Below, piece after piece: positions 4,798 to 14,069 of a stretch of 19,622 nucleotides of DNA. Position 1 is the stretch's first letter, and every line of letters begins with the position of its first letter. The notes under the pieces were generated by a model that was not told where the DNA came from, did no database searches, and saw only the letters and a list, made by a program, of their open reading frames with translations. The stretch lies in the NCBI GenBank assembly GCA_964584455.1, contig CAZPAE010000003.1, positions 1 through 19,622 of the forward strand. The letters are read 5' to 3'. The position numbers were made by a program, and so were the translations under genes. The DNA comes from an uncultured Thioalkalispiraceae bacterium (lineage in GTDB: Bacteria; Pseudomonadota; Gammaproteobacteria; UBA6429; Thiohalophilaceae).

Positions 4798-7047
4798 ATG
4801 AGTAAAGAATTTATTTTATCGGTTAATGGTATGAGCTGCGCAGGTTGTGTTAGCTCTGTAGAGAAAGCACTACGTGCCGTCGTTGGTGTAGAGCATGTTG
4901 ATATTAACTTTGCAGAACATACGGCTGTTGTTAAAGGTACAACCAATGTGAGCCAATTGATCGAAGCAGTAAGGTCTGCTGGTTATGATGCTGCCGAGTT
5001 ACGTGATATGGCCGATGAGGAAAATAAACAACAAGCCGAGCAACAACACTATCAGCAGCTTGTCCGTCAATCGGTGGTCGCAGCGGTGATTGGAATACCA
5101 CTTTTTTTGTTAGGGATGACAGGTATGTTGCCAGCAATCGCAACAAGCGATGGTCAATCAGCATTGAATATAGGACAAGTGACGTGGTTAATTGTCGCAG
5201 CACTCACATTAGGCGTCATGATTTATTCAGGGCGCCAATTTTTTGTTGGCGCATGGAAGTCATTAACCACACACAATGCAAATATGGATACCTTGATTGC
5301 ACTAGGCACAGGTACAGCATGGTTATATTCCGTTTTTGTTGTATTGGCGCCAGATACTATTATTTCGTTTAACCAACATGTGTATTTTGAGGCGGCCATT
5401 ATCATTATTGGGTTAATCAATTTTGGTAGCGCATTAGAGATGCGGGCACGTGGCAAAACATCACAAGCCATTCAACGTTTAATCGGTTTACAGCCTAAGA
5501 CAGCGCGTGTGGTTCGTGATGGGCAGGAGCAGGATATACCTATCGCACGGATTGGTCTGGGGGAAACATTGCGTGTAAGACCCGGTGAGCGGATTGCTGT
5601 TGATGGCAATATCATTGAAGGTCGGTCTTATGTGGATGAGTCAATGTTGACAGGGGAACCGATGCATATTGAAAAGAATATCGGGGATGAAGTGGTTGCT
5701 GGGACCATGAATGTCTCCGGCACATTCCTATATCAATCTCAACGAATTGGTGCTGACACGGTTTTAGCACAAATTATTCAGTTAGTGCGCCAAGCACAAT
5801 CCAGTAAACCAGCTATAGGTCGTTTAGTGGATAAAGTAGCAGCTGTGTTTGTGCCCAGTGTACTGATTATTGCCATTATTAGCTTTCTGGTATGGGCTAA
5901 TTTTGGTGGTGACAATGCAATGGGCCTAGCCATCATTACGACGATGACCGTACTTATTATTGCTTGTCCGTGTGCTTTGGGCCTAGCCACACCCATATCA
6001 ATCATGGTTGGCATTGGCAAAGCTGCAGAGCTTGGGGTGTTAATTCGCAATGGTGAAGCATTACAAGCTGCCTCGAAGATCTCCACGGTGGTTTTAGATA
6101 AAACCGGTACTATCACCCAAGGTACACCAACAGTAACCGATGTTGCCACGGTTAGTTCGGTTAACGAAGAAAAGGTTCTCCAATTAGCAGCGAGCTTAGA
6201 GCAAGGCTCAGAACACCCATTGGCACAAGCCATTTTGGTGAAGGCTCAGGAGAGACAGATAGTGTTGTTACCGTCTGAGCATTTTCAGGCAATATCTGGG
6301 ATGGGGGTTGTAGCACACATTGCCGATCAGCAAGTGCTATTGGGCAATGATAAATTGATGCAACAGTATAATGTGGATTATACGCTGTTAAGCGATGCTG
6401 CTAAGCGTTATGCACAACAAGCTAAAACAGCAATATACTTAGCCCGTGACAGACAATTACAAGCGGTGATTGCCATTGCGGATCCTATTAAACCAGGGTC
6501 GGCTGATGCCATTGCGCAATTACAGTCGCGAGGTTTAAAAGTGGTGATGTTGACAGGCGATAATGAAGTCACAGCCAATGCTGTTGCCAAGTCGGTAAAA
6601 GTGGCGCATGTGATTGCCGGTGTTTTACCGCAGGATAAGGATAAGCATATTGCAACTTTACAAGCTAGCCAAGAAGTGGTGGCGATGGTGGGGGATGGGA
6701 TTAATGATGCACCGGCATTAGCGCGGGCCAATATCGGTTTTGCCATTGGCACTGGAACCGACGTGGCGATAGAAAGTGCCGATGTGACCCTTATGCAGGG
6801 TTCATTACATGGTGTGGTCGATGCGATTAATATTTCACAGGCAACATTACGGAATATTAAACAAAATCTGCTTGGGGCCTTCTTTTATAATACATTAGGT
6901 ATTCCCATTGCTGCCGGGGTGCTCTATCCATTTTTTGGTATCCTGCTTAATCCGATGATTGCTGGGGCAGCGATGGCACTGTCTTCGGTCACGGTGGTTA
7001 CCAATGCTAATCGCTTACGGATGTTGAGATCGGAGCGTCAGCAATGA
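4798..7047 (+). CDS. copA: Cu(I)-translocating P1B-1-type ATPase, CopA-like, with a single N-terminal HMA domain. 749 aa.
   Basis: GMSCAGC metal-binding motif at the N-terminus. CPC motif in the TM6 region ([13 protein letters not shown]). DKTGTIT phosphorylation site, SEHPLA and [10 protein letters not shown] nucleotide-domain motifs. Cu(I)-specific YN (FFYNTLGIP) and M(A)LSS (MALSSVTV) transmembrane signatures are present. Confidence 0.95.
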
Positions 7048-7115
7048 TAGAACTCATCAATATAATAGGTGTCGGGCTCATTGTACTGATTATTTGGTGG
7101 TTCTGGTTATCTTAG
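7044..7115 (+). CDS. Candidate 23-aa single-TM mini-protein ([23 protein letters not shown]) that is translationally coupled to copA.
   Basis: The ATG overlaps the copA stop (CAATGATAG gives an ATGA overlap). GGAG lies 8 nt upstream. The frame is open for 23 codons to a TAG. The peptide is entirely hydrophobic with a WWFW cluster and resembles the N-terminal TM segment of CcoS/FixS-type peptides that follow CcoI/FixI Cu-ATPases, but it lacks their conserved RSGQ(F/Y)DD tail. It falls below the ORF-track length cutoff. Confidence 0.3.
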
Positions 7116-7285
7116 CCATGTGTGCCATCAAAATGGGGTGTCATCGAGGCCATTAGTCTGTGTATTGAGCAATCTGTTGCGGTGGTGGTTCCCACCAACC
7201 GGCCAGGGGAATACGCTTTTACCTGTCATATGCAGATGTATCGTGGCACACTTACTATATACGAAAGATAGAAAGGGGCATTTTT

Positions 7286-8095
7286 ATGTCATGGTGGGGA
7301 AAATTAGTCGGCGGTGCATTGGGGTTTGCCATGGGAGGCCCGATTGGCGCAATGGTAGGCGCATTTGCCGGACACCAGCTTGATCAGGGTTTGAAGCGAG
7401 CAGCGGAGTATGATGCGCTAGGGCATGGTACCGGGCAACATCAGGCTCGTGCGCAAACAGCTTTTTTTACCACGTTATTTTCTGTGATGGGACACTTGGC
7501 CAAGGCAGATGGACGAGTGAGCGAAACAGAGATACAAATGGCGCGCAATGTCATGCAGCAAATGCAGCTGGATGAGCAACAAAAACGGTTTGCCATTGAG
7601 TTGTTTGGAAAAGGCAAGGCGGCTGATTTTCCACTAGACGAGATTTTGGATCAGTTCCATCGTGAGTGCAGCCGTAATCGTAATTTAATGCAAATGTTTA
7701 TTGAGATTCTATTGCATGCGGCCTATGCCGATGGACACATGCATGATGCAGAACGCCATGTCTTTATTCGGATTTGCAAAAAAATCGGTTTTTCGCAATC
7801 AGAATTTGCGCGATTAGAGCGTATGGTACATGCACAACGCAATTTCCATGGCCAAGGGCAACAACAGGCAGGTAAATCTCAAGCCGATTTACTCCAAGAA
7901 GCCTATGTTGCATTAGGTGTGGATGCCTCTGCCAGTGATGCAGAAGTGAAAAAAGCCTATCGTCGACAAATGAATCAACATCATCCGGACAAATTAGTAG
8001 CCAAAGGACTACCAGAAGAGATGATTAAGCTAGCGAATGAGAAGACCCAAGAGATCAAAGCTGCCTACGAAACCATTAAGCGTGCACGTAACTAA
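7286..8095 (+). CDS. djlA: DnaJ-like co-chaperone DjlA, built as an N-terminal TM segment, a TerB-like middle domain and a C-terminal J domain.
   Basis: N-terminus MSWWGKLVGGALGFAMGGPIGAMVGAFAGH, as in DjlA. C-terminal J domain DLLQEAYVALGVDASASDAEVKKAYRRQMNQHHPDKL carries the HPD motif. AAAGGGG Shine-Dalgarno upstream of the ATG. Confidence 0.85.
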   Translation: MSWWGKLVGGALGFAMGGPIGAMVGAFAGHQLDQGLKRAAEYDALGHGTGQHQARAQTAFFTTLFSVMGHLAKADGRVSETEIQMARNVMQQMQLDEQQKRFAIELFGKGKAADFPLDEILDQFHRECSRNRNLMQMFIEILLHAAYADGHMHDAERHVFIRICKKIGFSQSEFARLERMVHAQRNFHGQGQQQAGKSQADLLQEAYVALGVDASASDAEVKKAYRRQMNQHHPDKLVAKGLPEEMIKLANEKTQEIKAAYETIKRARN

Positions 8096-9564
8096 AGGCT
8101 ATTTAAGAAAGCATAAAGTTGTTGTTTTTCTTCTTCAGAAAGTTCAGCAAAACGATTTCGTACAATTTCAGCTTCACCACCATGCGCTAAAATCGCATCA
8201 CGTAAGGTTGTTGCCCGACCATCATGCAAATACTGTTTACGTAAATGTAATCCCCACAGTGGGGCTGTACGCCAATCGCGACCACCTGCCTCACCCTGGA
8301 TGATTTTATCATCTAAGTCAGGCCCCATATCATGCAAAAGCAAATCGGAATAGACGAAGATCTTTTTACCATCAACCTCGAAAAAAGGCGTATGACATTT
8401 AACGCAGCCTGTTTCGTGGAAAAGTTTTTCGCCACCTAAGCGGGTGTCTGGTAATGATACTGAATAGCCAGTTTGTATTTGGCTGGTATAAAACATATTG
8501 GCACCAAAGCCCATTGAGTTAAATCCATAAGCCAGTGCGCCACTGATTGTGAATAAAAAGGCAAATAAAATGACCGGGGCGATGAGCAATTTTTTGCTTA
8601 ATTGTTTCACATCACGAAAGTGAGTTTGCATGCCCAATGCGGCCATCACTAAAACAAATAAAAAGGTAGTGATTTGGGCGATAGTTTGCGTAATGGTTTC
8701 GTCAGGTGCAGCTAAAGAGTTGATAATAACAGCAATGATAAAACCGATGATAAACCAGGGGAATGTACGTGCAAGACTCTTTTTCTCTTTACTATGGAAT
8801 ATCAGGGAGCCGACAATCAATAATACCGGGATTAATAAAAGAACACGGCTTAGCTTAACAATGGTGGCTGCGTTACCTGCATCCTGTGATACGTTATAAC
8901 CGGCACCAACAACTTGTACGACTTCATGTAATGAGGCGCCAGCTAATACACCGTAGGTGGATTCATTGAGCGGACCGAACAAACCCGCATTATACATAAT
9001 AGGTAGTACAATCATGGCAATGGTGCCAAGAATGGTTATCACCGTCACTGCCAGTACAGTTTGATGATGCTTCGCTTTTAATAGCGGTGCAGTGGCAAAG
9101 ATGGCAACTGCACCACAGATGGCGGTGCCCATAATAATCAAAAAGCTAGTGGTGTATTCAAGTTTGAACCAGCGAATAAATAAAATATAGCCAAATAGCA
9201 AGGTCGTGATGACAGCAATCACCGCTATGATAATGCCTTCAATACCAAAACCAAATAATTCACCAATCGTCAGCTGAAAGCCAATTAAAATAACACTAAA
9301 CCGCAATAAACGTTTTAAGACAAAATTGAGCCCTGCCCACCAAGAGGGGGGAATGGTAAAAGTGTTACCAATTAATAACCCGAAGATGAGCCCCATAAAT
9401 AAAGGACTGCTGCTAAGAAAACCCTTCACCCCCGTGGATATGTAATAAGCAAGCCCACCAACGATGATGGTGGCAATTAATCCTGGCATAATTTGTAGCA
9501 ACGGGTTATGTGCCATATGCGGGGAAAATAGGTTTAACACTTGTTGGCGAGAGAGAGAAGACAT
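8092..9564 (-). CDS. Chimeric ORF with two parts. The first ~365 aa form a YeiH/UPF0324 (PF03601-like) polytopic membrane protein. It runs in-frame into ~120 aa matching the C-terminal part of a DUF1111-type di-heme c-type cytochrome domain (CVKCH heme site, YSDLLLHDMG, RTAPLWG, YLHDGRA, HGGEA, FLNSL).
   Basis: Near-colinear with E. coli YeiH (PGL...LIGN...LLR-x-ILIGFQLT...IMGTAICGAVAIFATAP...ASLHEVVQVVGAG...FPWFIIGFI...LLIAPVILF). There is no stop after the last TM. The frame continues into GGEKLFHETGCVKCH...HGGEAEIVRNRFAELSEEEKQQLYAFLNSL. The start is placed at ATG 9564 (M20 of the track ORF). That position gives an N-terminal length like other YeiH proteins and sits 1 nt after the upstream gene's TAA. 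The track start at 9621 would create a 56-nt overlap with that upstream gene. Neither candidate start has an obvious Shine-Dalgarno. Confidence 0.7.
   Translation of the reverse strand: MSSLSRQQVLNLFSPHMAHNPLLQIMPGLIATIIVGGLAYYISTGVKGFLSSSPLFMGLIFGLLIGNTFTIPPSWWAGLNFVLKRLLRFSVILIGFQLTIGELFGFGIEGIIIAVIAVITTLLFGYILFIRWFKLEYTTSFLIIMGTAICGAVAIFATAPLLKAKHHQTVLAVTVITILGTIAMIVLPIMYNAGLFGPLNESTYGVLAGASLHEVVQVVGAGYNVSQDAGNAATIVKLSRVLLLIPVLLIVGSLIFHSKEKKSLARTFPWFIIGFIIAVIINSLAAPDETITQTIAQITTFLFVLVMAALGMQTHFRDVKQLSKKLLIAPVILFAFLFTISGALAYGFNSMGFGANMFYTSQIQTGYSVSLPDTRLGGEKLFHETGCVKCHTPFFEVDGKKIFVYSDLLLHDMGPDLDDKIIQGEAGGRDWRTAPLWGLHLRKQYLHDGRATTLRDAILAHGGEAEIVRNRFAELSEEEKQQLYAFLNSL
8451..8457. repeat. GTAATGA (plus strand; TCATTAC in coding sense). 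This is the distal copy of a 7-bp direct repeat at the YeiH-to-DUF1111 junction.
   Basis: Read directly from the sequence. An identical 7-mer sits at 9592-9598 at the homologous point of the interrupted DUF1111 frame (codons TCA TTA C = Ser-Leu in both fragments). Confidence 0.45.
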
Positions 9565-9591
9565 CTTATTGTGTAACTTGGGTTGGAATTT
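8458..9591 (-). other. Putative 1,134-bp inserted segment carrying exactly one gene (yeiH-like). It is bounded by the 7-bp direct repeats, and deleting it in silico rejoins the two DUF1111 halves in frame.
   Basis: Joining ...GCC TTT ATT CGG TCA TTA C | CA GAC ACC CGC TTA GGT GGC GAA... gives ...AFIRSL PDTRLGGEKLFHETGCVKCH..., a continuous DUF1111-like sequence. On the coding strand the segment begins with an in-frame TAA for the upstream fragment, 1 nt, then the yeiH-like ATG. No transposase, integrase or terminal inverted repeats are present. Confidence 0.4.
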
Positions 9592-11650
9592 GTAATGACC
9601 GAATAAAGGCTGATACATCATGGATTAAATCCACAGGATGATCATAAACTAATTGTTCATCTGCATTATTAAATGCTTGGCGAGTTGTACTTGCTTGTAA
9701 CATCAAGGGCGTAGTAATACCGAGTTCTGTCGCAAACGCCTCAGCAACCATAATGTTTAAAGTAGGGTTGTGTGCTTTCCAGCCATACTTACCTACATAC
9801 ATCTTGCCATCGGCACCTCTTGCTAAGTTCGGTTTACCATGAATACCATCCCCTTTCGGTACAGCACCTTTGAGAATCAACTCATCAGGGATAAGATCAA
9901 TTAAGCCGAGACCATATAAAGGTGGTGCTGTTCGTATTGATGTGACATTGGCTTGTTGCGGGATACCCACAATATGGTTTTCATCATCGCTGCTAATGGC
10001 GTGGCGGCGAATTTGTGGTCCACCACGACCTGTTAAGTCATCAAAGCCACCACTTAAATTTTCAAGTATGCCAACGCGTATGGCTGTTGTTGCTTCACCA
10101 ATACCAGCACCGCCCACCGAGGGCACATTATGGCAACTAACACAGTTGCGATCATTAAAGCGTGGACCTAACCCTTCACTTACGGTAAAGGAATGCATAA
10201 AAGATTTTTTGCCGCGTAGAACTTGTTCGGCAGGCAAATTCACTTCATTATAAAATTGTTGATTGTTGGCATACATTTGTGGCTGGGCAGTAGCGCTAAA
10301 CGCAGGTACTTCAATCAAAATACCAGGATGCTTGGGGTAATTAGGTAGACTACCGTTTAAAGTGAGACGAATTTTTTGTGCATCGGCTGAAATCGCAATG
10401 CCATTAATGCGGCCTGCGTTGATTAGTCCTAGTCCTGGCACATGGATTTTGGCAACGGCACTGACTTCACCATGTTGGTTCATGCGTAATAAAGAACCGT
10501 TACCACGGTTTGCTACAAACATATCTGCGCCACCGGCTAAGGGTGTGTGACTAGTAAAGCCAGAATTAGCAATTTCAGGAATTGCCGGTGCAACATCGAT
10601 GGGAAAGGAAAAATAACGCGAACGAAGACGTTGTAATTTATCAACATGAAACAAGTGCGCATCTTGTTTTAGATCGACTTTAGCAATACTGTTGGTTGTC
10701 GGTTCCGTAATAAATAGTGTTTTTACCGGTGTCCAGTTAAAGGCCATGCCCACATGGGTTGCATTCATGTCTAACGGATTGTGACGATTGACCACAGTGT
10801 TAATTCGTAGCGTAGTAGCGGGGAGTAGGCCATCTACACCATCACGTACATGTACTTGGGTAATTTCCCCGTTGGATTGCACCACGGCAAATACCGCAAA
10901 GCCAGAACCATCAGGTGACTTGCCCATAAAGGCAGTGCTAATGGCGCACGTCATTAAGTCTCCCGTGACATATTGTTTAGGTCGGCGATTGGTTTTACTT
11001 CCAGTAAAAACGCCACCGGCAACGACACTGGGTGGGTTTGCCAAAGGTCGACCTGTTGCATCAATCACGGTGCTAGTACCAGGTCCGCTATCGCCAAAGG
11101 GGCAATTAGCAAACCAGGGACGACCAAATGCATTATTAATAGAAATATACTTTGGGTTTGCCACGGATAACTGTTCTGCTGAGATCGTTGTGGGGTTATT
11201 CTTACGGTTGCTGAACGCAGCATGTTGCGCTGTAAATACACGTACATGACCATTAAGCGTTGCCGCTTGCCCACCATCGATAGCAAAGTGAGGCGGTATC
11301 ACTAATGTCTCGGTTTGAAATGGATCAATAGAAAGAATCGTCCCGCCTCGTTGACTGCTAATGGCCAGAGGTGCACCGTAGTTAACGTGACTGGTAACAA
11401 GCAACCGTTTGGGATCTAACACTTCTCCAGGACGGGTGAATTGATTAAATTCCGGTAAATGGTTAATCGGGCTATCTGGGTGAAAATAGCCTACCTCTCT
11501 AACGCTTCCAATACCTGGGATACCTACGGCGATGATACGTGCTTTTAATTCTAGCTCAGTAATATCTGTAGCACTGGCAAAACCTGTTGCCCACAGTAAA
11601 GCAAACAGGGTACCTGTTTTGAGTTTGGACAGCATAGCCATGGCGTTCAC
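9566..11650 (-). CDS. Exported protein (signal peptide ...ATGFASA|TD) of 694 aa in two parts. The first ~450 aa form an uncharacterised, possibly beta-propeller-like domain. The last ~200 aa match the first part of a DUF1111 di-heme domain (GLGPRFNDRNCVSCH, then GKYGWKAHNPTL, then DHPVDLIHDVSAFIRSLQIP). It ends prematurely relative to the family.
   Basis: Typical Sec signal peptide. The first CXXCH with the GLGP-FN-x-x-C-x-x-CH context and the GWKA-x-PTL block is characteristic of DUF1111 ('putative thiol oxidoreductase/di-heme peroxidase') proteins. The ORF stops immediately before the yeiH-like ATG, and the rest of the domain is found downstream fused to the YeiH-like protein. Start is ambiguous: GTG 11650 overlaps the preceding gene's stop, and ATG 11641 is an alternative. 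Confidence 0.68.
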   Translation of the reverse strand: MNAMAMLSKLKTGTLFALLWATGFASATDITELELKARIIAVGIPGIGSVREVGYFHPDSPINHLPEFNQFTRPGEVLDPKRLLVTSHVNYGAPLAISSQRGGTILSIDPFQTETLVIPPHFAIDGGQAATLNGHVRVFTAQHAAFSNRKNNPTTISAEQLSVANPKYISINNAFGRPWFANCPFGDSGPGTSTVIDATGRPLANPPSVVAGGVFTGSKTNRRPKQYVTGDLMTCAISTAFMGKSPDGSGFAVFAVVQSNGEITQVHVRDGVDGLLPATTLRINTVVNRHNPLDMNATHVGMAFNWTPVKTLFITEPTTNSIAKVDLKQDAHLFHVDKLQRLRSRYFSFPIDVAPAIPEIANSGFTSHTPLAGGADMFVANRGNGSLLRMNQHGEVSAVAKIHVPGLGLINAGRINGIAISADAQKIRLTLNGSLPNYPKHPGILIEVPAFSATAQPQMYANNQQFYNEVNLPAEQVLRGKKSFMHSFTVSEGLGPRFNDRNCVSCHNVPSVGGAGIGEATTAIRVGILENLSGGFDDLTGRGGPQIRRHAISSDDENHIVGIPQQANVTSIRTAPPLYGLGLIDLIPDELILKGAVPKGDGIHGKPNLARGADGKMYVGKYGWKAHNPTLNIMVAEAFATELGITTPLMLQASTTRQAFNNADEQLVYDHPVDLIHDVSAFIRSLQIPTQVTQ
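9592..9598. repeat. GTAATGA (plus strand). This is the proximal copy of the 7-bp direct repeat, at the point where the upstream DUF1111 fragment diverges.
   Basis: Read directly from the sequence. It encodes the Ser-Leu of ...FIRSLQIP... and matches the Ser-Leu of ...SVSLPDTRLGG... at 8451-8457. Confidence 0.45.
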
Positions 11651-13311
11651 TTAAACTGTTTTGCAAACTTAGGCGCAGTTGTCTCTTTATCTTGTTCAAG
11701 AAACTCAAGAATATTACTGGCACCTAAGACTGCGGCAGGGCCATTCAATCCGTTGCTTTCACCTTGCACTAATACTGTAGGGACTTTCACCATTTCTGGA
11801 TTATTCTTTGCTGCATCCAGTACTTCCTTGAGCATAGTGAGTTTTAATACCCGATCTTTACCAAATACAGAAACCATGGCTTGTTGACCTTGTGCCACTT
11901 CACGCAGACGTAGCTTTTCAGCGCGGCCGCGCAGTTTCATGGTATCAATTTGTTTATTCGCCACTTGTTGTTCTACTTCTGCTTTGGCTAAGGTGGCTTG
12001 TTCATTTGCGCTTGCTTTGGTTTTTTCTAATTCAATTCGTTTTTGTTGTGCTAAATGTTCCTTTTCAAACGTACTGCTGAGCATACCGGCTAGTTGCTTA
12101 CGTTGGTTAGCAGCAAGGATTTCGGCTGGGATGGCTAACTCGCCCAGGCGTACTGATTGTAACATTACACCAATATGCGCAAGTTCGGGCTCAAGTTTAT
12201 TATGGATGGCGGCTTCGAGTTCTGCTCGGCGCGAGATAATATCGGCAACTGGAATGTTTTTCTCAGATACAATGTTTTGTACTTCACTACGCAAGAAGGG
12301 TGTAATAACCGTTTGTTTCACTTGTTCCAGATCGCCAATATTCGCAACTAAGCGTGGTGCGTTATTCGGTGACACATTAATGGTTAATCGAATTTCAGTG
12401 GCAATCGGCCAACCTTGAAACATTACTGTAATCGCTTGATCTGTGGCATCAATCGGTTGTTCAATCACAGAGCTTGATACTTGTTGTACAACATTACCAT
12501 CATTTGCAACAGATAATTCAATTTGGCGTTTGGTATAGCCGCCTTTATAAGAAACTTGTTGTGATAGCGTCGGAATAATCGTGGCTTGGTATGCTAAGTG
12601 GTTAAGATAATATTTGCCTGGGCCAAGGACCTCTTGCCAAACGCCAGCACAACCTTGTTTTACCAATGGTGTGTGTTCAGATGAAGCAATGGTTTGACAG
12701 TCTTCTGATTGGTTGATGTTTGATTTAACTACGGCCACTTCACCTGCACGTACATCTAATGGCTCTTGATTGGTAATCTCATATAAGTAGTGATTAATCC
12801 GGTATTGCCCCGGTTTGAGTACCATCAGTTGCGGCCCTTTTTGGCCGCCTTGGGTTAGAAAGTATTCGGCATTAAGGAATGCACTATGCTGATCAGCAGG
12901 CCAAGGATCAGATAAAAACTGACCTGGTTGAAGTTGTTGCCCGTCTTTTGCGGTAATCAGACCATATTGATCATTGGGAATAGAAACAATGGGGAGCTCT
13001 TCTATATCGTAAATAACCGTTAATAAGGGTGAGAAATGAAAGCCAGGCCCCAGTACGCGTGCTTGTGGACCATTTTGTCCCTCTAGGGCAATGATTTGTC
13101 CTGCCTTTAGGGGATCACCAAAATAAATACGAGTGAGATGACCGACTTTATCTTTATCAACAATGTGTATTGATGTTAACGATAAACTAGTGACGGCAAG
13201 TATACTGCTTAGTACAAGTGTAGGATAGTAATAACGTGATTGTTTTTTTAAAGACAAGTAGCTCCATACTGCTACGCTAATAAATATGATGCTTAAGCTC
13301 AGATACAACAT
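11647..13311 (-). CDS. Flotillin-like (YqiK family) SPFH/band-7 inner-membrane protein, ~554 aa from ATG 13311.
   Basis: N-terminal TM segment(s), then an SPFH-like start (VDKDKVGHLTRIYFGDPLKAGQIIALEGQNGPQARVLGPGFHF). The C-terminal coiled-coil and tail (…EKTKASANEQATLAKAEVEQQ…KDRVLKLTMLKEVLDAAKNNPEMVKVPTVLVQGESNG) are colinear with the E. coli YqiK C-terminus. The start is moved from the track's TTG 13323 to ATG 13311, which has a GGAGG 6 nt upstream. Its stop overlaps the start of the next gene. Confidence 0.65.
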   Translation of the reverse strand: MLYLSLSIIFISVAVWSYLSLKKQSRYYYPTLVLSSILAVTSLSLTSIHIVDKDKVGHLTRIYFGDPLKAGQIIALEGQNGPQARVLGPGFHFSPLLTVIYDIEELPIVSIPNDQYGLITAKDGQQLQPGQFLSDPWPADQHSAFLNAEYFLTQGGQKGPQLMVLKPGQYRINHYLYEITNQEPLDVRAGEVAVVKSNINQSEDCQTIASSEHTPLVKQGCAGVWQEVLGPGKYYLNHLAYQATIIPTLSQQVSYKGGYTKRQIELSVANDGNVVQQVSSSVIEQPIDATDQAITVMFQGWPIATEIRLTINVSPNNAPRLVANIGDLEQVKQTVITPFLRSEVQNIVSEKNIPVADIISRRAELEAAIHNKLEPELAHIGVMLQSVRLGELAIPAEILAANQRKQLAGMLSSTFEKEHLAQQKRIELEKTKASANEQATLAKAEVEQQVANKQIDTMKLRGRAEKLRLREVAQGQQAMVSVFGKDRVLKLTMLKEVLDAAKNNPEMVKVPTVLVQGESNGLNGPAAVLGASNILEFLEQDKETTAPKFAKQFK

Positions 13312-13354
13312 AATGCCCTCCAACCTAATGCGATGCTGAACACCTGCTCGTCTG

Positions 13355-13374
13355 CTTTGATCTTATCAAAGATC
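13355..13374. promoter_or_regulatory. Interlocked palindromes (CTTTGAT ctt ATCAAAG and GATCT...AGATC) in the 5' region of the flotillin-like gene. Candidate operator.
   Basis: Read directly. Located ~45-65 nt upstream of the ATG at 13311 on the minus strand, next to a TTGACC -35-like hexamer. Confidence 0.25.
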
Positions 13375-13598
13375 TCGGGTCAACATGATAATAAAAAGGT
13401 TTTGTTACTACGTTACTATAAGCACTATAAAAATAATGTTATAGCGATGTAGATAATTAAACCTACCGATAGGGGCATTTCGGTAATGAAACTATGTATA
13501 CAAGATCAACAATAGTGAATGAGACTAATTGTTACACTTTGTTACGTAGAGTGCATACAAAATCTAGGTAAGTATGATTATACCGAAAGATGGCAGCA

Positions 13599-14069
13599 TT
13601 ATAATGTGAAGTAACGTCCACCACCGGCAATTAATACGACTAATAAGCCAAGTGATAAATTAAGAGCGATCAATTTACGAATTTGGTTTAACCGTTTACC
13701 ACCATCTGGCCAATCTTGTTTGATCACCGCTTGTTTTAAACGTTTATACGGTGCAAAGAATACATGCATATATATAAGTATCATTGCGATACCTAGTCCA
13801 TTCATCATATGCACATATACAGGGGTTTGTGCAAAGCTACCCCAAGTGGAAAACAACATGTAATAGCCAGTGCCCAGTAACAAAATAATTGAAAGCCAGA
13901 CAAAAGGGAAAAAATGGTTAAACACTCCGACCCATAAAGTCAGTCGTTGTGGTGGTTCAAGTTGCTGGGCGGCAACAGGGCGCAATGCCATATAGGCGAA
14001 AAACATACCGCCGACCCAAATGACAGCAGAAAGTAAATGAAGTATTAAGGTAAGCGATTTAATCGTCAT
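13599..14069 (-). CDS. Small 4-TM membrane protein of the HemJ/CopD superfamily (UPF0093-like). Possibly a HemJ-type protoporphyrinogen oxidase or a CopD-like protein.
   Basis: 156 aa with four hydrophobic helices. His in TM1 (LILHLLSAVIWVGGMFF...R) and a second conserved His (IYMHVFF). A basic loop (KRLKQAVIKQDWPDGGKRLNQIRK) precedes the last TM, as in HemJ. Assignment is from pattern recall only. Confidence 0.4.
   Translation of the reverse strand: MTIKSLTLILHLLSAVIWVGGMFFAYMALRPVAAQQLEPPQRLTLWVGVFNHFFPFVWLSIILLLGTGYYMLFSTWGSFAQTPVYVHMMNGLGIAMILIYMHVFFAPYKRLKQAVIKQDWPDGGKRLNQIRKLIALNLSLGLLVVLIAGGGRYFTL

Follow-up and report, generated by a model that had tools for sequence, protein, structure and literature searches.

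A putative split di-heme oxidoreductase built onto a YeiH-type transporter in an uncultured Thioalkalispiraceae bacterium

A 19,622-nucleotide stretch of contig CAZPAE010000003.1 (GenBank assembly GCA_964584455.1), from an uncultured bacterium of the Thioalkalispiraceae and referred to herein as the window, contains three tightly packed minus-strand genes between djlA and a CopD-like gene. The first encodes an SPFH/Band-7 protein, the second (open reading frame A, ORF-A) an exported beta-propeller protein that ends in a heme domain, H1, and the third (ORF-B) a transporter of the YeiH/PSE family that continues into another heme domain, H2. The two heme domains correspond to consecutive stretches of one di-heme oxidoreductase family, DHOR (also named DUF1111; PF06537). 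We propose, with a probability of about 0.6, that this conserved operon specifies a di-heme oxidoreductase that is split by nature and attached to a transporter.

The initial annotation of this DNA had placed the first heme site and core of a DUF1111 domain at the end of an exported protein of 694 amino acids (aa), and this proved correct. ORF-A carries a signal peptide and a single CxxCH motif (CVSCH, aa 503-507, window 10130-10144), and H1 matches positions 211-309 of the PF06537 profile (E = 2.4e-7 for the domain alone). The scores of ORF-A (25.5 bits) and of H1 alone (30.1 bits) both exceed the gathering threshold of 22 bits. The CxxCH of H1 is invariant in 112 homologues, and the family motif GWKA (9773-9784) is likewise invariant. 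ORF-A ends with ...FIRSLQIPTQVTQ, followed by its stop codon; as had been noted, a YeiH gene begins after a single intervening nucleotide and reads directly into the remainder of the DUF1111 domain. Within this one ORF, positions 1-303 of the 304 in PF03601 (E = 1.9e-78; 263.9 bits against a gathering threshold of 24.5) are followed by positions 365-499 of the 499 in PF06537 (E = 5.6e-27; 94.8 bits), with a single CxxCH motif (CVKCH, aa 387-391, window 8392-8406) that is invariant in 99 homologues. The Pfam matches, whose E-values lie far outside what chance would give, also bear out that the two pieces, which lie in different frames and about 1.1 kb apart, are parts of one domain family. The single polypeptide to be expected from the 499-position profile is thus interrupted by a stop codon, a change of frame, and a YeiH module. 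An alternative start of ORF-A at ATG 11641 would give a protein of 691 aa; for ORF-B an upstream ATG at 9621 is also possible, and homologues align to the start at 9564.

Unsplit relatives locate the break. P0135, P0151, P0141, and P0177 are contiguous propeller-H1-H2 proteins, and such unsplit forms are about 790 aa long. P0135 reads through the break as ...FVRSLEPLRPRTAQGEGERLFASAGCTACH..., at the point where ORF-A terminates and H2 of ORF-B resumes at ...GGEKLFHETGCVKCH. In another unsplit gene (locus L003), H1 extends to 8004 and H2 begins at 8032, about nine codons apart; the split form therefore lacks no part of the enzyme, and YeiH sits exactly in the linker between the two heme domains. 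H2 of the window is 50-57.5% identical to the C-terminal domain of the unsplit proteins (E = 1e-39 to 1e-43), which indicates that it is the orthologous domain and was not recruited from elsewhere. An AlphaFold2 model of P0135, with a per-residue confidence (pLDDT) of 90 and a predicted template-modelling score of 0.76, consists of a six-bladed propeller (residues ~27-445), a short low-confidence linker, and a helical/heme region. A structure search with this full model retrieved only generic six-bladed propellers, the heme half being swamped by the propeller. In a metagenome-assembled genome (MAG) of a Mesorhizobium sp. (L054, 7845-11555), the propeller, H1, YeiH, and H2 occur in one stop-free ORF, where ...AVASYSASAPPARWGKAMSLALTLS... 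stands in place of the end of the first gene; a true full fusion and a 1-nucleotide indel error of the MAG are the two possible explanations.

The split arrangement is widespread. A search with ORF-B yielded over 120 protein clusters, 37-43% identical and every one with PF03601 plus PF06537; Ideonella, Roseateles, and Rhizobium are among the genomes named. The gene directly upstream overlaps by 4 nucleotides in Ideonella azotifigens and Rhizobium sp. 007, where it encodes 708 and 719 aa, respectively; these partners are 39-40% identical to ORF-A over their full length (E = 1e-140 and 1e-154). Same-strand pairs that overlap or nearly abut are found in Ideonella, Rhizobium, and Gallionellaceae, and at the junction homologues show a 4-nucleotide ATGA overlap. 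With one genome taken per GTDB species, 391 loci with a relative of ORF-A were collected, and the best 80 were classified by phmmer using the window's own modules (propeller, H1, YeiH, H2, and SPFH). The pair of propeller-H1 and YeiH-H2 genes was intact at 33 of these best 80 loci, and versions of it that are about 40% identical are present in Alpha-, Beta-, and Gammaproteobacteria as well as one Chloroflexota MAG.

Five architectures were distinguished. In T1, the propeller, H1, and H2 form one gene with no YeiH nearby (Calidithermus, Acetobacteraceae, Xanthobacteraceae, Bradyrhizobium, Myxococcota, and Eremiobacterota). T2, the type of the window, comprises propeller-H1 and YeiH-H2 genes and is found in many Burkholderiales, about a dozen Mesorhizobium species, Rhizobium tropici, Beijerinckiaceae, Gallionellaceae, and one Ardenticatenaceae MAG. 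T3, from Chloroflexota (L037, L051, L062, and L067), has the propeller and H1-H2 in two neighbouring genes. In T4, from Actinomycetota, YeiH and the propeller share one ORF, and a convergent gene encodes H1-H2. In T5, from Acidobacteriota (L078, L081, and L083-L085), the propeller stands alone in the matched region. In a neighbour-joining tree of the propeller plus H1 (75 loci, 583 columns), the T2 loci without exception grouped as a single clan (100/100 bootstrap support), and T4 formed another clan (100/100), nested among T1 and T3 forms. Since DHOR proteins are generally single polypeptides, the contiguous state is ancestral, and the split form has a single origin from which it then spread. 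The ratio of nonsynonymous to synonymous substitution rates (dN/dS) is 0.02-0.25 for the propeller, H1, YeiH, and H2 in six closely related T2 pairs, and the split pair is under purifying selection. The distance matrices of the two genes are correlated over 33 loci (r = 0.965, Mantel p = 0.001), the pair being inherited as a unit, and the correlation in part reflects shared species history. In one Alphaproteobacteria MAG within the split-type clade (L047, 10025-11400), YeiH::H2 is fragmented over three frames and is probably a pseudogene or the product of a sequencing error.

T4 represents a second fusion of YeiH to this enzyme. For example, at L053 an ORF of 908 aa (6552-9278) joins YeiH, a linker domain of about 110 aa of unknown type, and the propeller, while the convergent gene (9328-10464) encodes a 378-aa H1-H2 di-heme protein with its own N-terminal transmembrane (TM) anchor. 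The same architecture occurs at L064, L079, L082, and L086. The YeiH moieties of T2 and T4 share 26-36% identity with each other, and either shares 30-37% with Escherichia coli YeiH. As they are no closer to each other than to E. coli YeiH, YeiH was evidently recruited twice. It was also attached at two different points in two phyla, and the shared requirement thus seems to be the physical proximity of transporter and enzyme, that is, hand-over of a substrate.

The transporter half of ORF-B is complete. Its residues 19-351 align with residues 10-347 of the 349 of E. coli YeiH at 36% identity, the alignment stopping exactly where the linker of ORF-B begins, and the YeiH motifs AICGAVA and HEVVQVV are retained. 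With NCBIfam TIGR00698, ORF-B scores 192.1 bits, under the subfamily cut-off of 232.6, and it thus represents a divergent subfamily. A Foldseek search with the ORF-B model gave only weak matches to transporters of the CPA, CitS, and NhaP types, and we know of no YeiH structure that has been solved. Attachment of c-type heme requires a periplasmic location. A positive-inside analysis (K/R-rich segments at 259-269 and 316-326) has the last TM helix, aa 328-350, run from inside to outside. The PSE family has been described as having its N-terminus inside, 9 or 11 TM helices, and two re-entrant loops (PMC8396727), an odd number of helices that puts the C-terminus outside. H2 of ORF-B is accordingly predicted to be periplasmic.

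The propeller of about 440 aa matched no Pfam or NCBIfam model even at E<=10. DUF1513 was considered for it and rejected, as no match to DUF1513 was obtained in the Pfam search. Its invariant motifs include FH..GPI, ISINNAFGRPW, VxDGVDGL, PEIAN, and VANRGDG, and it would merit a family model of its own. The family is rare: among 1.84 billion representatives, only 103 clusters (at 50% identity) match ORF-A at E<=1e-30. Three long proteins, P0370 (1160 aa), P0367 (886 aa), and P0417 (924 aa), carry the propeller at their C-terminus (e.g. residues 733-1158), which points to further fusion partners of the propeller family.

The SPFH protein scores 59.4 bits with PF01145, over the gathering threshold of 23.6. 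It has hydrophobic helices at aa 5-22 and 34-52, and the loop between them (SLKKQSRYYY) is rich in K/R, so that the positive-inside rule predicts a periplasmic SPFH domain. A direct fusion of SPFH to the mature N-terminus of ORF-A occurs in Gallionellaceae (L036/P0128) and in two metagenomic proteins (P0125 and P0126); the junction, ...VPSYELxARvvAVGIPG, includes no hydrophobic segment, and both parts must therefore lie in one compartment. In the Ardenticatenaceae MAG (L035), a separate SPFH gene lies upstream. The subfamily itself is common in Gammaproteobacteria, and the relatives of the SPFH protein, together with a GC content of about 43%, suggest that the DNA is gammaproteobacterial. A role for SPFH as a general component of the system was ruled out, as its relatives stand alone in all three checked; SPFH appears instead to be an accessory that is specific to the deepest T2 sub-branch. 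It may, like the HflK/C cages around FtsH, scaffold or enclose the complex.

The layout of the window is summarized in Table 1. The junction of ORF-A and ORF-B is consistent with translational coupling, and the SPFH stop codon TGA (11649-11647) overlaps the GTG start of ORF-A (aaGTGAac). The sigma-70-like matches listed in the table are the only minus-strand promoter matches in 7900-13700, and consensus matches overall are below chance expectation. The convergent djlA and ORF-B share 4 nucleotides at their 3' ends (8092-8095), and no intrinsic-terminator-like site lies in between.

Table 1. Features of the operon and its surroundings in the window
Feature	Position	Strand	Remarks
ORF-B, YeiH/PSE transporter fused to H2, 490 aa	8092..9564	-	ORF list, Pfam, homologues
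YeiH/PSE module (PF03601), complete, aa 1-352	8509..9564	-	PF03601 and E. coli YeiH alignment
Linker, 22 residues, no charged residue	8449..8514	-	Between last TM helix and H2; low pLDDT in model
H2, C-terminal heme domain of DHOR unit, aa 373-490	8095..8448	-	PF06537; predicted periplasmic
Gene junction, TAA of ORF-A (9568-9566), spacer base (9565), ATG of ORF-B (9564-9562)	9562..9568	-	caaTAAgATG
ORF-A, exported propeller plus H1, 694 aa from GTG 11650	9566..11650	-	ORF list, Pfam, homologues
Sec signal peptide, aa 1-27 (...WATGFASA\TD, cleavage at the stroke), A-x-A type	11570..11650	-	Read from sequence; homologue alignments begin downstream
Six-bladed NHL/SGL-type beta-propeller, aa 28-470	10241..11569	-	Outside every Pfam family
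H1, N-terminal heme domain of DHOR unit, aa 471-694 (224 residues)	9569..10240	-	PF06537
SPFH/Band-7 scaffold gene, 558 aa, first of operon	11647..13323	-	PF01145, E 6.3e-16
Sigma-70-like promoter matches	13415..13453	-	Upstream of SPFH start; weak evidence
djlA	7286-8095	+	Flank of operon
CopD-like gene (small CopD-family membrane protein)	13599-14069	-	Other flank
CopA-type P1B ATPase	4798-7047	+	Distant from operon

The nearness of the CopA-type ATPase and CopD-family genes to the operon is probably coincidental, the neighbours being different in other genomes. No universal partner emerged when the ORFs within 6 kb of the 80 loci were clustered and Pfam was run on the immediate same-strand neighbours of 10 diverse split-type loci. 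The latter included a MobA-like transferase, an MFS transporter, a PAP2-like protein, an NHL protein, a Ser/Thr kinase, and unknowns. Clusters of ABC ATPases and kinases look like background. Large Ser/Thr protein kinases with TPR regions were found near the module at 11 loci of four architecture types (e.g. L046, 12144-15221, and L073, 4859-7708), a recurrence that may reflect the sheer abundance of such kinases in these genomes. The sole meaningfully recurrent neighbour is cysH.

How such an operon might work can be outlined as follows. ORF-A would be exported by Sec, acquire its heme, and then dock non-covalently through H1 on the tethered H2; we infer that the two domains associate in the periplasm. 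Together they would rebuild a two-heme redox unit, like that of cytochrome c peroxidase (CCP) or MauG, at the periplasmic mouth of YeiH, where the cargo would be oxidised or otherwise processed on emergence. In this sub-branch the SPFH protein is a probable scaffold or enclosure of the assembly, on the model of HflK/C around FtsH. The least certain step concerns the substrate. This may be sulfite, which, once YeiH had exported it, would undergo extracytoplasmic detoxification by the heme/propeller enzyme.

Sulfite is favoured because of the adjacency of cysH in two phyla and the genetics of YeiH. The APS-reductase-type CysH (APS, adenosine 5'-phosphosulfate) is a sulfite-producing enzyme. Its gene adjoins the module at 13/35 T2 loci and 3/5 T4 loci, and at 0/43 loci that have no YeiH. 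For example, an intact APS-reductase-type cysH ends 31 nucleotides upstream of the YeiH::propeller gene at L053 (Actinomycetota), and an intact cysH (11438-12163, 241 aa) starts 28 nucleotides downstream of YeiH::H2 in Mesorhizobium escarrei (L055). In Rhizobium sp. 007 (L002, 7477-8268), the cysH downstream of the module has an in-frame stop and a divergent C-terminus and is probably decaying. YeiH confers sulfite resistance in Salmonella (bioRxiv 10.1101/2025.07.27.662810) and is the leading sulfite-exporter candidate in Hyphomicrobium denitrificans and Bordetella pertussis; in all three organisms, yeiH mutants are sulfite-sensitive or the gene is sulfite-induced. Export-coupled, extracytoplasmic detoxification of sulfite is therefore suggested tentatively. 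Its fuller form, a molybdenum-independent assembly in which YeiH hands sulfite to a two-polypeptide heme enzyme that some lineages keep in an SPFH cage, is more doubtful still.

Several points weigh against this proposal in its different parts. Unsplit forms occur with no YeiH gene nearby, so that the enzyme can work without a tethered transporter. H2 alone is poorly modelled in ORF-B (pLDDT ~40-60; the YeiH part is good), relatives of the SPFH protein are stand-alone in 3/3 other gammaproteobacterial contexts checked, and the shared species history in the Mantel correlation takes something from its force. As for sulfite, cysH is found neither in the window nor at most split-type loci, and the proteobacterial link to cysH comes essentially from one rhizobial lineage. 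The proteins contain no molybdenum or other known sulfite-oxidising domain or cofactor, and canonical DUF1111 proteins are tied to iron uptake, not sulfur.

The initial annotation had offered two readings, the insertion of a cargo gene that disrupted a heme-protein gene or a natural three-part architecture. A recent insertion of yeiH, leaving a pseudogene or an accidental chimera, would account for the exact placement of YeiH in the H1-H2 linker of a gene that is undivided elsewhere and for the different frames of the halves. We nevertheless regard it as extremely improbable: the same arrangement, about 40% identical, recurs in three proteobacterial classes and in Chloroflexota, it goes back to a single origin with 100/100 support, all modules are under constraint (dN/dS 0.02-0.25), and the heme motifs are invariant. 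Moreover, the locus has no mobile-element features, no tRNA genes were found in the window, and composition is flat over 8000-13500, with an unremarkable GC content. The idea of a recent or damaging event thus has to be given up, as the same split is conserved in related genomes; "a transporter gene nested between the halves" is still a fair description of an ancient, fixed event. The alternative of a natural architecture is the one upheld, by a conserved clade and by unsplit relatives that place YeiH precisely in the inter-heme linker. A chimeric contig, against which a check had been advised, might be suspected because the window is short (19.6 kb) and probably derives from a MAG. However, an independently assembled ENA scaffold (L087, 4020 nucleotides) corresponds to window 12715..8696 at 99.9% identity with no gaps and covers both junctions, which excludes an assembly chimera, and the junction is also present in isolate genomes (Ideonella azotifigens, Rhizobium sp. 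007, and Mesorhizobium spp.). The chance of an assembly or binning artefact is therefore practically negligible.

The remaining explanations accept the architecture and differ over its purpose. YeiH might be a mere anchor or a platform for electron entry, the whole being a membrane-tethered peroxidase like the quinol peroxidases and YhjA with no coupling to transport. H2 does correspond to the C-terminal, electron-transfer heme domain of bacterial di-heme peroxidases, membrane-anchored relatives of the bacterial CCPs exist, and the unsplit forms work without YeiH. An anchor, however, would not be expected to keep a full-length transporter profile, the binding-site motifs of its family, and a dN/dS of 0.05-0.18, and no quinol-binding site or redox cofactor is known for the PSE family. 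In Actinomycetota, moreover, the fusion partner of YeiH is the propeller in place of H2, and a TM anchor of its own holds H1-H2. Electron entry through H2 would not explain that fusion, and the common denominator is nearness to YeiH; we consider the anchor unlikely. A maturation role is very unlikely. By this account the di-heme unit, like MauG or MbnH, would oxidise the propeller or another protein to form a protein-derived cofactor, with YeiH supplying or removing a small molecule. DHOR is a sister family of CCP/MauG, the propeller contains many aromatic and charged residues that are invariant (W172 and W300 among them, as numbered in P0135), and enzyme and propeller are always linked. H2 also has weak NCBIfam matches to hydrazine synthase gamma, MbnH, and MauG, but those to MauG and MbnH all fall far under the family cut-offs, and the Acidobacteriota have propeller-only genes with no heme partner in the matched region. 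A similarly small chance is given to a role in iron, in which the unit would perform periplasmic Fe(II)/Fe(III) redox chemistry with the propeller in the place of DUF1513. DUF1111 proteins of the imelysin/EfeO type are encoded in iron-uptake operons beside the beta-propeller protein DUF1513, and split-type loci occur in Gallionellaceae and in Burkholderiales of the Leptothrix group. Yet the neighbours checked include no imelysin, EfeO, EfeU, Ftr1, or bacterioferritin genes, the propeller matches neither DUF1513 nor any other Pfam family, and YeiH has no known link to iron. Transporter-enzyme coupling by a split di-heme oxidoreductase is thus the reading that we prefer.

Two independent fusions of YeiH to this enzyme are a strong Rosetta-stone signal, implying that the two families cooperate physically, and they name a concrete partner and place of action for the cargo of YeiH. 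To our knowledge, no member of DHOR/DUF1111 has been characterised biochemically, and YeiH/PSE has been tied genetically to sulfite resistance only recently; from two families of unknown function there thus emerges a concrete, testable transporter-enzyme hypothesis, together with a rare case of a natural split multi-heme enzyme. Such a natural split-enzyme experiment bears on the assembly of CCP/MauG-type enzymes and on electron transfer between their hemes. If the sulfite assembly is real, it would be the first natural split enzyme of the CCP/MauG type and the first machine in which a transporter and an enzyme export and oxidise sulfite. Current annotation, with ORF-B as a "sulfate exporter" and ORF-A as "hypothetical" or "di-heme oxidoreductase", hides that neither is complete alone. 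The constituent families are known, and it is the architecture that is unusual and informative. No description of a YeiH-DHOR fusion, of the split, or of the propeller-DHOR family was found in the literature searched. The epithet "previously unseen" in the initial annotation therefore stands for that literature and fails for the databases, where the proteins already lie with the automatic labels PF03601 plus PF06537; the annotation had also missed that the upstream SPFH ("flotillin-like") gene belongs to the operon in this sub-branch, and it had missed the second YeiH fusion, in Actinomycetota.

Among known systems, the closest likeness is to DHOR itself, with successive parts of the profile over the gathering score, one CxxCH motif in each of H1 and H2, and GWKA, LHDMG, (Y/F)LHDG, and HGGEA as further motifs of the family. 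A canonical DHOR protein, however, is a single soluble polypeptide, usually from an iron-uptake operon of the imelysin/EfeO type. Here the heme domains are on two polypeptides, H1 following an unclassified propeller and H2 a transporter, with no iron genes nearby. The design of two domains and two hemes also recalls the di-heme cytochrome c peroxidases and MauG (PF03150; PDB 3o5c and 1iqc). H2 aligns to the C-terminal electron-transfer heme domain of 3o5c (residues ~179-290, E = 4e-4), including (Y/F)(F/L)HDG, and also to 1iqc; these PDB sequence matches of H2 are weak (E = 4e-4 to 0.45). The window proteins have no match to PF03150 at E<=0.01, and an unsplit homologue scores 16.9 bits against a cut-off of 25.6. 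Neither a division between polypeptides nor fusion to a transporter is known to us for any member of the CCP/MauG group, and none appeared in the literature searched.

The YeiH/PSE transporters (PF03601, TC 2.A.98), which ORF-B resembles in its full-length transporter with an outside C-terminus, include YeiH of E. coli and of Salmonella, BP2808 of B. pertussis, Hden_0834 of H. denitrificans, and SuyZ of Paracoccus. Characterised members are stand-alone proteins of about 350 aa, typically encoded beside the LysR regulator YeiE; ORF-B, in contrast, has a periplasmic heme extension of 140 aa and no yeiE neighbour. The SPFH protein resembles HflK/HflC (PMC12048511) in an SPFH domain predicted to face the periplasm and in being co-operonic with, or fused to, its presumed client. 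It is not an orthologue (15.4 bits against the NCBIfam hflC equivalog cut-off of 134.4), and the client that it would enclose is a redox/transport complex, unlike the protease of HflK/C-FtsH. Finally, the quinol peroxidase and E. coli YhjA likewise present a di-heme peroxidase-like unit at the periplasmic face of the inner membrane. Each of them consists of one polypeptide that has a TM helix at its N-terminus and carries an additional heme domain.

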